Shown piece by piece: positions 48,101 to 51,805 of a stretch of DNA of 64,000 nt. The stretch is taken from NCBI GenBank assembly GCA_020073005.1, contig JAIQFX010000037.1, forward strand, positions 18-64,017, in the 5' to 3' direction. How positions within the stretch are numbered: the first letter of the stretch is position 1; the number at the start of each line of letters is the position of its first letter. The notes beneath the pieces were generated by a model. The model was not told where the DNA came from. It was given only the letters and a program-made list of their open reading frames with translations, and did no database searches. The stretch is from Terriglobia bacterium (GTDB lineage Bacteria; Acidobacteriota; Vicinamibacteria; Vicinamibacterales; CAVVIG01). A program made the position numbers and the translations under genes.

Positions 48101-48584
48101 CGTGCTCGGCGGCCGCAGCGACAAGACGCAGGAGGTCGCGATCATTCCGTATCCGGAAGCCGCGGCGCCGGCCGACGCCGACGGCATCATGCTGCTCATC
48201 ACGCTGCTGCAGGAGCGGAAGGCGCTCGTCGTCTTCGCGGCGCCGGCGGACGGAGGCGCGCACGTCCTCAAAGCCGGCACGCCGACGACGCAGGTCACCT
48301 TCAGCAACAACACGCTGGACGCCAAGGCGCAGGCGGCGCTCGCGGCGAAGTTGCCGGGCACGCAACCCGTCAGCGCGGTCGCGCTCGCCATGACGAAGGA
48401 CACGCCCGACACGACGGCGGGCCTCAGGCTCAACGCCGTGCCCGACGCGCTCGTCGCGGCCGGAAAAGCCAAGGCGGGCGTGACGCAGACAGTCGGGTCG
48501 TTGAGCGCGCAGGATCGCGAGGCGCTGATCAAGCTCGGGAAGAATCCGGACGACTACGACGAAGTCATCTTCGTGGAATCGTGA
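45123..48584 (+). CDS. unassigned 1153-aa protein, longer member of the paralogous pair
   Basis: The start is the ATG at 45123 (gaggag SD), inside track ORF 43950..48584 whose upstream part is spurious. The N-terminus reads LKRLNYFDGKFLRADDFDVEQQYLRQLVAQSNQGLGPGVVYGYD...GPGLAIDPSGRVLLL. Confidence 0.6.
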   Translation: MATSATSANGNSSSLIVVNDTGGVTVIDPGTPLKRLNYFDGKFLRADDFDVEQQYLRQLVAQSNQGLGPGVVYGYDTTRGSGDSIHIGPGLAIDPSGRVLLLSSAVTQSISDLIERSKPTGAARADASGKSGPGTFTDCIDVSVATPIPPTVNAVSDVYVIAICAAEALCGQTDVFGKLCEEACVTTTDKKYRLDGVVLRAIPLSLLTPFPTSKVVDITANTYLRSKIAHSWFADEALRHQDSISRAGLLSSTWCLGAGYTSACCEVPLAVVARAGATTVFLDAWIVRRERMEAPSRRYWQWKMRMRPMDVFLAQILQFQCQLANLLGGDVVPAPAGIAVADATKNLVVLDETSAFLDEVRAGLSSYRTLSAAQAVTADQPALLALSLTKVTDLQDRLKRIIVTGKTPARPSSQILIRGGVIELPPAGYLPVYNHSNVTVNDQVRALLGDGLDLRFCVASADYIAHEVEAAQHMDRISLLQGLDDPSNKPRVDVFVPDGRAIAPPSPIDAYDAFARFSTRQTGGYSARGAAREETLASGGSALHTAAIGLAQGVIQKSQTLARQYAGAKARKTPLVLNSDLATNAFVAESRTTGALFYSKVDDATAEAQKYTTLANFAAAPKAAAARAHETLDGLWLTASSAQSITGLDRGQQTAVELRAILASRPAAPDTFELTFHGTLSISSVTRGANGGLLRGLLTGIYAFGVLKEEQAVQRTTEYLITERGSWPATVRWTGDDANGVIALDVEAPLTETEFFRLTRTVTNGSKIVYELALVQRSADTGGASSFALNTVTSVPIAALLLTPDRDVVNATNRNHRYAEAGLAVVQTALIVSDPNIKAMADAQLFPPPSTAPTELTIDAVRDWVMFTKRREKRCSPGVTPAAPLATRRYRVLNVTANAIDLADKVRSDFEANRTSTNREPLANWINALIAEKQREVSLVLTYAGGSTTADTDPDLSDWRSFHPGSVIYYAAIGAVGETDEMLELNRLISVESVLGGRSDKTQEVAIIPYPEAAAPADADGIMLLITLLQERKALVVFAAPADGGAHVLKAGTPTTQVTFSNNTLDAKAQAALAAKLPGTQPVSAVALAMTKDTPDTTAGLRLNAVPDALVAAGKAKAGVTQTVGSLSAQDREALIKLGKNPDDYDEVIFVES

Positions 48585-49786: not shown

Positions 49787-51805
49787 ATGGCCCACGCATT
49801 TGCCCAGCGGCACTCCGCGCCAGGCGAGCGCGACGCGTCCCCGGGCCGCGCGCATGCGGCCGCGGCCGATCGCGCGCGGAGCGCCCAGGGAGAAATGTCG
49901 CGCGCGTTCGCGCTGACGTCCACCTGGCGCGCGCCGGTCATCCATCGCGCGTGCGCCTGCGGCGGCGGCAGCAACGGCAACGAAGAGGAAGAGCCGATCA
50001 AGCGCGCGCCGGATGCCTCCGGGCTCGTCAGCCAGCCGACCGATCCGGCGGAGATCGAAGCCGACCGCATCGCCGATCAGATCATGCGGATGGAAGACGG
50101 AACGGGCGATGCGATCGCGCTCGCCCCTCCCTCGCCCGTCGCGCGGAAATGCGCCGCGTGCGCCGCCGAAGAAGACACAGAGGAACAGGTCGAAAGCCTG
50201 GTCTCGCGCGCCACGGGCGGCGGCGGCAACCCGCTCGACGTCAGCACGCGCGGACGGATGGAATCGCACTTCGGCCGCAGCTTCGAGGACGTCCGCGTGC
50301 ACACGAGCGGCGCCGCGGCGGAGTCGGCGAGCGCGCTTCACGCGCTGGCGTACACGGTCGGCAGCGACATCGTGTTCGGCGCGGGCCAGTACTCCCCGGG
50401 CGGCCGCGCGGGCGAGCGGCTCCTCGCGCACGAGCTCACCCACGTGGCGCAGGGCGCTTCATCAATGGGCGCGCCGATTCAGCGGCAGGAGTTCATTCCG
50501 ATTCCGGAAACCGGACCGGGATTCTCGCCTGAGTTCATTCCGGAGCTTCCAGAACTGCCGGAGATCGAGATCGAGCCGGAGATCACGCCCGAGTTCGAGC
50601 CGGAGTTGGAGCCGGAGCTCGAACCGGAAATCGGGCCGGAGGTGGGACCGGAGGTCGGACCGGAACCGGCGCCGCAGATCGAACCTTTCCCGGAGCCGTT
50701 CCCGCCGCTGCTGCCGCAGCCGCAGCCATTTCCACAACCGCAGCCGCAGCCCCAGCCCCAGCCGCAGCCGGACGACGAGGAAGACGAGCCGGACGAGACG
50801 TGCGGCTCGGCGAGCATGCCCTTCACGCACGTGACGTGGACGCCGGGCCCGCTCGGTCAGGGCAAGACGGTGAAGGCGAGCCCGCTGACGCGCTGCCCCG
50901 GCAACACGCGCGGATCGAAACCGTCGCGCAGCATCTATCGCCCGCAGTTCGACTGCATCAACGCGGCCGGACAGCGCGGCACGTGGGTGCGCGCGCACGT
51001 CCTGCACGGCAAGACGGATCGCCGGCCGCTGTTCAACCTGCACGGGCCCGGGAACCAGATGTGGAATCTGATCATCGGAGACCAGACGCTCAACGGCGGG
51101 ATGCGCGCCGGCGCGGAGGATCCCGCGATCGATCGCGTGCACCTGAACAACGAAGTCCTGTGGTACGAGTCCACCGTCGATTCGTACGTGCCCGGGCTGG
51201 ACTACTTCGCGCAATCGATCACGGTCAACTTCGGAAGGTACGACACGACGACGCACACGGAAGGACCGCGGCTCGGAGGCGGCACGTTCCCGCTCGGCAC
51301 GACGCCGCCCAATTGCCCGGTGACGGCGGCGCAGTCCGCCGCCGTCCCGCCCGGCGCCGCCGCCGCGGGACCCGCGGCCGGCGCGACCGCCGCGCCCCAC
51401 ACGTCAGGGACGACGCTGTCCTTCCAGAGCACGCTGAAGATCTGCCATCGGCTTCTGCGATCGCGGACGTTCCACGTGCCGAACGGCGGACTTCGCGTGC
51501 GCATCGGCGCGCAGTGGTTCGATCCGTCCGGCCGGAACATCCAGAGCCGGGCCGACTGTCCGATCACCGAGTTCCACGTCAGCCTCGAGCAGTCCGGCAC
51601 CTTCTGGGACAGCGAGATCAGCGATACGGCCATTCCGGTCGGCCACGCGCAGGCCATCCGGTGGCGGTACCTCGATCCCGGCGACTACTACTTGAACATC
51701 TGGACGTTGAACGACGATCCGAATTGCTGTCTGACGGGAGAGATTTCGGTGTCGACGTTCGACGCGCCGAGGCCGGTGCGCAGTCGCACGCCCATGATCG
51801 CGTGA
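49787..51805 (+). CDS. DUF4157-domain protein with a Pro/Glu-rich linker and a C-terminal putative toxin (possibly beta-beta-alpha-Me nuclease-like) domain
   Basis: 672 aa. VIHRACACGGG...EPIKRAP, NPLDVSTRGRMESHFGRSFEDVRVHTSGAAAESASALHALAYTVGSDIVFGAGQYSP...LLAHELTHVAQ is the DUF4157 signature. The linker reads PELPELPEIEIEPEITPEFEPELEPELEPEIGPEV...PQPQPFPQPQPQPQPQPQP. The C-terminal AHVLHGKTD...LHGPGNQMWNLIIGDQTLNGGMRAGAED has an H...N...N...E pattern. Confidence 0.75.
   Translation: MAHAFAQRHSAPGERDASPGRAHAAAADRARSAQGEMSRAFALTSTWRAPVIHRACACGGGSNGNEEEEPIKRAPDASGLVSQPTDPAEIEADRIADQIMRMEDGTGDAIALAPPSPVARKCAACAAEEDTEEQVESLVSRATGGGGNPLDVSTRGRMESHFGRSFEDVRVHTSGAAAESASALHALAYTVGSDIVFGAGQYSPGGRAGERLLAHELTHVAQGASSMGAPIQRQEFIPIPETGPGFSPEFIPELPELPEIEIEPEITPEFEPELEPELEPEIGPEVGPEVGPEPAPQIEPFPEPFPPLLPQPQPFPQPQPQPQPQPQPDDEEDEPDETCGSASMPFTHVTWTPGPLGQGKTVKASPLTRCPGNTRGSKPSRSIYRPQFDCINAAGQRGTWVRAHVLHGKTDRRPLFNLHGPGNQMWNLIIGDQTLNGGMRAGAEDPAIDRVHLNNEVLWYESTVDSYVPGLDYFAQSITVNFGRYDTTTHTEGPRLGGGTFPLGTTPPNCPVTAAQSAAVPPGAAAAGPAAGATAAPHTSGTTLSFQSTLKICHRLLRSRTFHVPNGGLRVRIGAQWFDPSGRNIQSRADCPITEFHVSLEQSGTFWDSEISDTAIPVGHAQAIRWRYLDPGDYYLNIWTLNDDPNCCLTGEISVSTFDAPRPVRSRTPMIA

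Follow-up and report, generated by a model that had tools for sequence, protein, structure and literature searches.

The window analysed in this study is a stretch of 64,000 nucleotides from a Terriglobia bacterium (GenBank assembly GCA_020073005.1, contig JAIQFX010000037.1, positions 18 to 64,017). On its + strand, at about 23.9-51.8 kb, it carries the complete operon of an extracellular contractile injection system (eCIS), which is closed by the two genes discussed here, gene 1 (48581..49780, 399 aa plus stop) and gene 2 (49787..51805, 672 aa plus stop). A first-pass annotation, made from the DNA letters alone, had placed these two genes last in the operon, and both open reading frames (ORFs) were found on the + strand, as was every motif quoted from the two protein sequences. 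This position is typical of eCIS cargo, which is usually encoded at the operon's 3' end (PMC8213781). Gene 1 starts with a GTG codon overlapping the stop codon of the upstream gene as GTGA, and gene 2 begins 6 bp past gene 1. Both are real genes, because more than 179 homologue clusters were found for gene 1 (45-70% identity for the central domain) and 48 clusters, all unnamed, for residues 337-672 of gene 2; E-values of homologues were as low as 1e-100 and beyond. The gene 1 product is identical (100%) to MBZ5558156.1 at NCBI, a 'hypothetical protein' of an Acidobacteriia/Terriglobia metagenome-assembled genome (MAG). From ORFs, homologues and, for gene 2, Pfam matches, gene 2 is described here as an eCIS cargo that combines DUF4157 with a nuclease-like toxin domain, and gene 1 as an eCIS cargo candidate without DUF4157. 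The two products probably constitute a cargo pair composed of a nuclease and a cell-wall-directed protein, whose activity, loading and target we infer from the comparative and structural analyses described below.

The proposal that gene 2 encodes a DUF4157 protein was borne out by the hidden Markov model (HMM) search that had been suggested as a check. Residues 149-224 (50231..50458) match DUF4157/eCIS_core (PF13699) with an E-value of 8.3e-29 and 100 bits against a cut-off of 22. The motifs FEDVRVHT and HELTHVAQ are located at residues 165-172 and 215-222, and the zincin-like HExxH motif described for DUF4157 (PMC8213781) is intact (H215-E-L-T-H219, 50429-50443). The 148-residue stretch in front of this domain (residues 1-148, 49787..50230) holds SRAFALTSTWRAPVIHRACACGG; according to sequence inspection and motif scan it contains SRAFALTSTWRAPVIHR at residues 38-54 and then CACGG, VIHRACACGG covering residues 51-60. 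In the relatives, DUF4157 N-termini commonly display (I/L)QRKCA(A)C(GG). Behind the domain, APIQRQ (residues 229-234) leads into a linker that is first rich in Pro and Glu and then in Pro and Gln (residues 234-336, 50486..50794), with 33 Pro, 24 Glu and 10 Gln among 103 residues, in agreement with the long Pro/Glu linker noted before. Its DNA consists of imperfect tandem repeats, a 12-nt unit in about 6 copies (50567-50641) and a 6-nt unit in about 11.5 copies (50702-50770), and this repeat-encoded linker is likely to be a site of length variation. The 12-nt repeat tract was also delimited as 50567-50664.

The part of gene 2 that follows the linker had been regarded as one C-terminal domain of residues about 340-672 with a beta-beta-alpha-Me active site of the non-specific endonuclease type. 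The suggested structure prediction upheld the nuclease-like assignment and divided the region in two: the AlphaFold model (23 sequences, mean predicted local distance difference test score (pLDDT) of 86) resolved a nuclease-like domain at residues 337-512 (50795..51322) and a separate jelly-roll at residues 541-661. In the former, most 10-residue blocks have a pLDDT of 83-98. The predicted topology is β-β-α, with a strand (400-404, WVRAH) ending at H404, a long loop containing LHGPG, a second strand (428-432) and a helix (433-453). The motifs AHVLHG (403-408), LHGPG (418-422), NLIIGDQTLNGG (427-438) and AED (443-445) fall into this region. P366, H404, G420, G422, N427, N436, E444 and Y460 are invariant in 32 divergent members of the family. 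Candidate catalytic residues are H404 (50996-50998), N427 (51065-51067), N436 (51092-51094) and E444 (51116-51118); N436 occupies the fourth position of the helix, with E444 at +8 from it. According to the published description of the His-Me finger active site (PMC5714182), the first strand provides a His, the first helical turn an Asn or His as metal ligand, and a polar residue follows at +4 or +8; the arrangement of H404, N436 and E444 matches this.

Neither Pfam nor PDB sequence or profile searches gave a relevant match for residues 337-672, and the HMM check proposed for Endonuclease_NS_2 (PF13930) failed on gene 2 itself, the relationship becoming apparent by profile comparison with a relative that is recognised by this model. 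In P0214, a relative of 2,738 aa, segment 1308-1377 passes PF13930 with 30.4 bits against a cut-off of 27, and the family HMM of the nuclease-like domain matches the same segment at 23.7 bits. Alignment of the 32-member alignment to this PF13930 segment by hhalign resulted in a probability of 97.9% (E 4e-13, 122 columns, 32% identity), compared to at most 1.0% for 30 shuffled controls, 0.9% for the reversed sequence and 0.1% for a Tox-SHH domain. PF13930 was also the sole Pfam family matched by more than one of the members (4 out of 32 at E ≤ 10, best 4.4e-4, below threshold). Together with the model and the invariant residues, these data support the view that residues 337-512 are a divergent branch of Endonuclease_NS_2 that the Pfam model misses, with a predicted nuclease activity.

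When 1.84 billion representative proteins were searched by profile, 479 relatives of the C-terminal half of gene 2 were obtained, which show its two domains to be modules independent of each other. Among 180 sampled proteins, the order DUF4157, nuclease-like domain, jelly-roll occurred 30 times, nuclease-like domain and jelly-roll 37 times, DUF4157 and nuclease-like domain 29 times, the nuclease-like domain by itself 27 times, DUF4157 and jelly-roll 36 times and the jelly-roll by itself 21 times. DUF4157 is present in the majority of those family proteins whose N-terminus is intact, some of the DUF4157-nuclease proteins exceeding 1,000 residues, and in 32 of the 56 family proteins lacking the jelly-roll the nuclease-like domain ends within about 7 residues of the C-terminus. 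P0214 contains DUF4157 twice and a nuclease domain twice, once as canonical PF13930 (1308-1377) and once in the divergent form (2544-2734), and its sequence gives the impression of two cargo proteins fused in tandem. Two copies each of the divergent domain were present in P0183 and P0198.

An Ala/Pro linker (residues 513-540, 51323..51406; 13 Ala in 28 residues, pLDDT below 50 at 518-539) connects the nuclease-like domain to the C-terminal jelly-roll β-sandwich (residues 541-661, 51407..51769), for which an all-β model with a pLDDT of about 88-95 was obtained. Foldseek matches at E-values of 1e-4 to 1e-3 comprised the C-terminal jelly-roll of Tk-SP, PirA (target-normalised template-modelling (TM) score 0.65-0.68), GOLD domains, the ligand-binding domain of the ephrin receptor Eph, the receptor-binding domain of lambda gpJ and a carbohydrate-binding module. 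The jelly-roll directly follows DUF4157, without a nuclease domain, in 36 other proteins, some of which then carry Tlde1. Because of this variable position and these other toxin partners, it is best interpreted as an accessory or binding module which is general to DUF4157 cargo and is not part of the nuclease. A role as intramolecular inhibitor of the nuclease was also considered and appears unlikely, since 56 of 123 sampled proteins with the nuclease-like domain lack the jelly-roll and since the jelly-roll also occurs together with Tlde1.

The product of gene 1 was modelled by AlphaFold from 34 sequences with a mean pLDDT of 86. Its N-terminal region (residues 1-63, 48581..48769) had been noted as Arg-rich, and it does contain 10 Arg, with an isoelectric point of 12.0; it is predicted to be disordered (pLDDT below 50). 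No DUF4157 match was obtained for gene 1 with Pfam. A Pro-rich linker (residues 301-325, 49481..49555) with 10 Pro in 25 residues coincides with a dip in pLDDT and precedes the C-terminal β-domain at residues 326-392 (49556..49756). Structure model and sequence profiles confirm that this β-domain, which had been described as SH3b-like, is a genuine SH3b cell-wall-binding domain. Foldseek aligned it to 8b2g, the SH3-like wall-binding domain of fungal GH24 muramidases, with an E-value of 9.3e-6, a TM score of 0.82, a root-mean-square deviation of 2.2 Å and 32% identity, and the family profile of gene 1 matched 8b2f, an SH3-like cell-wall-binding domain, with an E-value of 1.4e-12. The SH3_3 model (PF08239), which had been named as a check, stayed below its Pfam cut-off of 27 bits, scoring 20.1 bits with the whole protein and 24.1 bits with the tail on its own. 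Pfam SH3_3 was matched by 23 of 34 relatives of gene 1 (E ≤ 10, best 3.2e-7). A BFVD search with gene 1 returned only SH3b matches, to phage endolysins, and NCBIfam and PHROGs contributed matches to the SH3 region only.

Between the N-terminal region and the Pro-rich linker lies a Cys-rich, strongly conserved central domain (residues 64-300, 48770..49480; pLDDT 94-98), a putative cell-wall-directed enzyme. It had been left unassigned before and matched nothing in our Pfam, NCBIfam and PDB sequence searches. In 118 members W114, D134, N204, D227, R229, D257, T258, D260, C262, C266, E271, E282 and D289 are invariant, and no conserved His is found among them. Relatives of the central domain are fused to SH3_3, LysM, PG_binding_1 or OmpA, and 76 of the 120 gene 1 relatives listed carry an N-terminal DUF4157. 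Among the relatives found, the central domain occurs only in eCIS-type loci or in DUF4157 fusions, and always together with interchangeable murein-binding modules. Since the relatives exchange SH3b for LysM, PG_binding_1 or OmpA, the cell wall of bacteria is the likely target of gene 1 as judged from sequence. The domain partners and the conservation pattern argue for a predicted enzyme acting at this site. A precedent for an eCIS toxin degrading the cell wall is the pesticin-like peptidoglycan hydrolase EAT10 (PMC8213781). The best Foldseek match of gene 1 outside the SH3 region was BtpeA, the C-terminal domain of a type VI secretion system (T6SS) effector (9jdi, E 0.018). Conserved Cys residues are C72, C77, C262 and C266 in gene 1 (48776-48811 and 49364-49378), C339, C370, C390 and C510 in the nuclease-like domain (50801-51316) and C553, C591, C647 and C648 in the jelly-roll (51443-51730).

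The two genes are also connected by their N-termini. In the six-frame translation of the window, the motif SRA(F/L)AL…I(Q/H)R has only two matches, at residue 35 of gene 1 and at residue 38 of gene 2. In gene 1 the motif scan delimited it as SRALALSPGNGALIQR (residues 35-50, 48683-48730), within the disordered region. The ALIQRQ of gene 1 (residues 46-51), which had been compared to the motif of gene 2, is present and similar as claimed; it belongs to this N-terminal motif and not only to the junction behind DUF4157. The pattern also matches at residue 37 of the relative P0052, and similar motifs can be seen by eye at the same distance from the N-terminus in P0051 and P0010, relatives from both families. 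In P0052 an N-terminus and DUF4157 of the gene 2 type are joined to an effector of the gene 1 type.

Related loci point to a modular construction of the cargo. Synteny with locus L007 extends over the AAA ATPase (53% identity), a 445-aa protein (38%), the gene 1 homologue (64%) and the N-terminus plus DUF4157 of gene 2 (44%). The tail-fibre-like protein of the window is 47% identical to a 1323-aa protein of L007 over its N-terminal approximately 490 aa; beyond this region, alignable sequence is confined to two short stretches (33-37%), which is what a swapped receptor-binding end would be expected to show. In L007 (10001-14741) the gene 1 homologue lies next to a DUF4157 protein ending in Tox-SHH, which is followed by an SMI1_KNR4 immunity gene, and the likewise syntenic L008 (4986-10912) has a similar arrangement of gene 1 homologue, Tox-SHH protein and SMI1_KNR4. 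The presence of this combination in the same slot indicates that the C-terminal toxin is exchanged as in polymorphic toxins. In a Gammaproteobacteria MAG and in an Acidobacteriales MAG, the eCIS AAA ATPase gene is immediately followed by a homologue of gene 2. A genome scan with a narrower alignment resulted in 4 loci, and a scan with a single protein did not recover any locus.

No immunity gene adjoins the pair, as had been stated before. Directly downstream lies a convergent gene with a PEGA domain (51840..52907, - strand; PF08308, E 7.5e-14), which had likewise been recognised in the first pass; it closes the operon and is not part of the eCIS system. The stop codons of gene 2 and of this gene are 34 bp apart, hence no ORF can follow gene 2. 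A homologue of SMI1_KNR4 was not found anywhere in the window, and no conserved downstream ORF is shared among eight loci, the window and seven related ones. The only kinship noted downstream concerns response regulators in L005 and L006. In L005, from an Acidobacteriales MAG, a response regulator and a histidine kinase (9178-11303) directly follow the homologous toxin gene, and in L006, from an Actinomycetota MAG, an ORF related to that of L005 (33% identical over 117 aa) is found directly after the toxin gene (9007-9582). These regulators may reflect eCIS-linked regulation. No relationship exists between the small convergent ORF of L009 and that of L010. Absence of adjacent immunity genes is a published, unexplained property of many eCIS toxins, including experimentally antibacterial ones (PMC8213781). 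In the first pass it had been taken to fit an extracellular or non-self-targeting mode; it may reflect a target other than bacteria, production shortly before lysis or inactivity in the producer.

These observations can be combined into a model of the cargo pair. The N-termini, predicted to be disordered in gene 1 and presumed to be so in gene 2, would serve as loading signals, as for Cgo1 and Cgo2 of AlgoCIS, and the AAA+ ATPase would help to fill the tube lumen with both proteins. After leaving the producer, the particles would attach to a target by the tail fibre and, on contraction, eject their cargo. DNA and/or RNA would then be degraded by the nuclease-like domain of gene 2 in a Mg2+-dependent, sequence-non-specific manner, whereas the central domain of gene 1, held on murein by SH3b, would act enzymatically on the wall or on a wall precursor. 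A wall-acting domain held in this way implies that the target most likely is a bacterium. In the DUF4157 cargo, the toxin at the C-terminus would be exchangeable as in polymorphic toxins, and the jelly-roll would be an accessory module for binding or handling outside the catalytic domain.

Several results speak against this model. PF13930 is not matched by residues 337-512 of gene 2 even at E ≤ 10, no solved nuclease was recovered by the sequence profile search, and the Foldseek list for the two-domain model consists entirely of jelly-roll matches, which hide any match of the nuclease domain. The central domain of gene 1 is without a confident structural or sequence relative. BLASTP between the N-termini of gene 1 and gene 2 was not significant, and their shared motif was defined after inspection of the sequences. 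A nuclease active in the cytoplasm and lacking an immunity gene is left unexplained. Furthermore, all three effector domains contain many conserved Cys, which is unusual for proteins made in the cytoplasm; these residues could be Zn sites or form disulfides after delivery.

The missing immunity gene would be accounted for if the system were directed at eukaryotes, like the metamorphosis-associated contractile structures (MAC) with Pne1 and the virulence cassettes (PVCs) of Photorhabdus, gene 1 then being an accessory protein and not antibacterial. Pne1, the best-studied nuclease cargo of an eCIS, carries PF13930 and kills eukaryotic cells, and the four previously characterised eCISs are described as acting on invertebrate hosts (PMC8213781). 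An adjacent immunity gene was found neither here nor in the seven related loci. However, gene 1 and its relatives carry SH3b, LysM, PG_binding_1 or OmpA, all of them binders of bacterial murein. Syntenic loci of the same lineage encode SMI1_KNR4 beside their nuclease cargo, implying selection for protection from a toxin active in bacteria, and absence of immunity genes is common for eCIS toxins with experimentally demonstrated antibacterial activity too (PMC8213781). A eukaryotic target is therefore unlikely in our view, and the peptidoglycan-binding partner cargo together with the immunity gene of the sister locus favours a bacterial one.

Within the reading of gene 1 as a wall-directed protein, a more specific proposal is that its central domain is a colicin M-like enzyme that cleaves lipid II in the periplasm of the target, with D257 and D260 corresponding to D226 and D229 of colicin M (ColM). 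Colicin M structures (2xtq, 2xtr, 8jc1 and 4fzl) were the only structural neighbours in the PDB besides SH3b and 9jdi, with Foldseek E-values of 0.13-0.42, about 205 aligned columns and target-normalised TM scores of 0.29-0.33. In both proteins a helical part is followed by a β-hairpin ending in D-x-x-D, a weak likeness, and both are related to the wall. The best local profile-profile alignment pairs the hairpin and DTID of gene 1 with ColM residues 205-250 (DKYD), and the peptidoglycan-binding partner domains are compatible with a wall precursor as target. On the other hand, the Foldseek probabilities reach only about 0.3-0.6 (0.33-0.57 for the structures named), and hhalign gave a probability of 0.15% against ColM (sequence identical to 2xmx at 271/271 residues) and of 0.16% against a 15-member ColM family profile, neither of them significant. 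Pfam Colicin_M (PF14859) was not matched by any of 34 members at E ≤ 10. The signature DxYDx5HR is absent; gene 1 has D257-T-I-D260-LCPGN-C266-G267 (DTIDLCPGNCG), with neither the Tyr nor the His-Arg, and deviations from the signature have been read as loss of phosphatase function (PMC5821083). Gene 1 thus differs from the Colicin M family in lacking significant sequence or profile similarity as well as the signature. Membership in this family was rejected on these grounds and is quite improbable, the resemblance remaining a weak lead. A broader conjecture has a somewhat better chance, although it is still on the doubtful side: the central domain might be a new class of enzyme that attacks peptidoglycan or lipid II and may have a D-x-x-D core like that of colicin M, this eCIS lineage might fire a pair of wall-breaker and nuclease at bacteria, and the jelly-roll might be an undescribed general adaptor of DUF4157 cargo.

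Gene 1 could alternatively be a lysis or release enzyme which, by analogy to an endolysin, opens the wall of the producer to free the particles and is not cargo at all. SH3b domains are typical of phage endolysins, gene 1 lacks DUF4157, and lysis of the producer is thought to release eCIS particles (PMC8213781). This possibility is very improbable in view of the N-terminal DUF4157 cargo module of 76 out of 120 relatives listed, the N-terminal motif common to genes 1 and 2, the absence of relatives of the central domain from 2.9 million viral contigs (IMG/VR) and the fact that no holin-like gene is evident beside gene 1.

That the nuclease-like domain of gene 2 is dead or only binds nucleic acid, any toxicity deriving from the metallopeptidase-like DUF4157 domain with its intact HExxH (H215-H219), could be concluded from the failure of the Pfam nuclease model and from the unusually long inter-strand loop with its extra invariant residues, but is hardly credible because all canonical His-Me finger positions are invariant in the 32 divergent members, which argues for retained catalysis, because many DUF4157 proteins, some of them longer than 1,000 residues, have this domain at the C-terminal toxin position, and because toxicity of Cgo1 is independent of the DUF4157 metalloprotease motif (PMC8894135) and DUF4157 is dispensable for loading (bioRxiv 10.64898/2026.05.27.728243).

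Turning back to the cargo pair of nuclease and wall-directed protein, its closest known parallels include characterised eCIS effectors. Pne1 (JF50_12610) of the Pseudoalteromonas luteoviolacea MAC eCIS is likewise a cargo encoded at the end of the cluster and an Endonuclease_NS_2 (PF13930) His-Me finger protein; it is an active nuclease with a conserved catalytic Glu (bioRxiv 10.1101/543298). Pne1 is matched by PF13930 and lacks DUF4157 (bioRxiv 10.64898/2026.05.27.728243), whereas for gene 2 the reverse holds. Gene 2 furthermore differs by its long Pro/Glu linker, an 8-residue insertion in the inter-strand loop and the C-terminal jelly-roll. While Pne1 kills eukaryotic cells, the target of genes 1 and 2 is more likely bacterial, judging from gene 1. 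The AlgoCIS proteins Cgo1 and Cgo2 of Algoriphagus machipongonensis are another adjacent cargo pair; they have related disordered N-termini, optional DUF4157 and different C-terminal domains. They are loaded into the tube lumen, for which the N-terminal region is needed and DUF4157 is not (PMC8894135; bioRxiv 10.64898/2026.05.27.728243). In contrast to gene 1, both Cgo proteins carry DUF4157. The C-terminal domains also differ, that of Cgo1 being a predicted metalloprotease, and loading is a prediction for the pair described here.

Polymorphic toxins of the Endonuclea_NS_2 type (Dickeya RhsA, S. aureus EsaD/EssD, B. subtilis YeeF) belong, like the streptococcal nucleases Spd1 and Sda1, to the same His-Me finger group 5 (PMC5714182), and these toxins are non-specific DNases at the C-terminus of delivery modules (PMC9990079). 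They are delivered by T6SS, by the type VII secretion system or by secretion and have adjacent immunity genes; gene 2 is associated with an eCIS, has no immunity gene and has diverged beyond the reach of the Pfam model and of PDB sequence profiles. The toxins associated with eCISs (EATs) that were reported by Geller et al. 2021 and by Danov et al. 2024 share with genes 1 and 2 the location at the operon's 3' end, DUF4157 in the protein or in a neighbour and the frequent lack of immunity genes. EATs include wall-degrading and nuclease activities and were delimited by location at an eCIS operon's 3' end, with DUF4157 either in the protein itself or no more than two gene positions away (PMC11297309, PMC8213781). 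Genes 1 and 2 are the last two operon genes, with DUF4157 in gene 2. The predicted catalytic domain of gene 1 differs from the annotated EAT domains in matching none of them, including the pesticin-like EAT10. These comparisons support an assignment of both genes as additional eCIS-associated toxins of a known class, in which the newness lies in the domain families and not in the mechanism.

Particles of eCISs are being engineered for protein delivery, and the function of most of their natural cargo is unassigned; 983 of 1130 predicted DUF4157 toxins are without a second annotated domain (PMC11297309). The central domain of gene 1, the nuclease-like domain and the jelly-roll belong to no database family, and these three modules now gain working labels as a widespread cell-wall-directed domain, a divergent NS_2-type nuclease and a jelly-roll of DUF4157 proteins. 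Since nuclease cargo with immunity (Tox-SHH and SMI1_KNR4) and without immunity occurs in the same eCIS lineage, the question of producer survival becomes approachable by comparison. The knowledge of how eCISs work is left unchanged by these findings.

Apart from the two cargo genes, the operon encodes two sheath proteins, a gp19-type tube, a CIS_tube protein, a gpD hub, a gpV spike, baseplate J, a Tail_P2_I protein with NHL repeats and the AAA+ ATPase with its winged-helix domain. The ATPase, which resembles Afp15, Pvc15 and Alg15 (40402..42372, + strand; PF00004, E 2.3e-26, plus the winged-helix domain), is the presumed cargo loader. Two successive proteins (43771-45120 and approximately 45123-48584, + strand) have N-termini with weak matches to the CIS13 (tail-fibre) family; the second (45123..48584), a tail-fibre-like protein of about 1140-1150 aa, is located directly 5' of gene 1. 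A promoter and terminator scan of 48300-52300 detected no promoter-like or terminator-like site. The two sheath paralogues (Phage_sheath_1 and sheath C-terminal domain; 23952-25802 and 26325-28379, + strand) flank the tube gene, and the NHL repeats are part of the Tail_P2_I baseplate protein (36491-38779, + strand). A separate NHL or six-bladed propeller protein is encoded just beyond the operon on the opposite strand (55339-57015, - strand). Between this gene and the PEGA gene, an ORF of the + strand (53093-54751) encodes a 552-aa protein whose weak Pfam matches are mostly to families of coiled-coil type and which contains a run of FEPA-type repeats (…EPTFEPAFEPAFEPAFEPAFEH…). Upstream of the operon, a fusion of glycosyltransferase and methyltransferase (14558-16045, - strand) also matches the 'GT4-conflict' family (E 1.5e-16).

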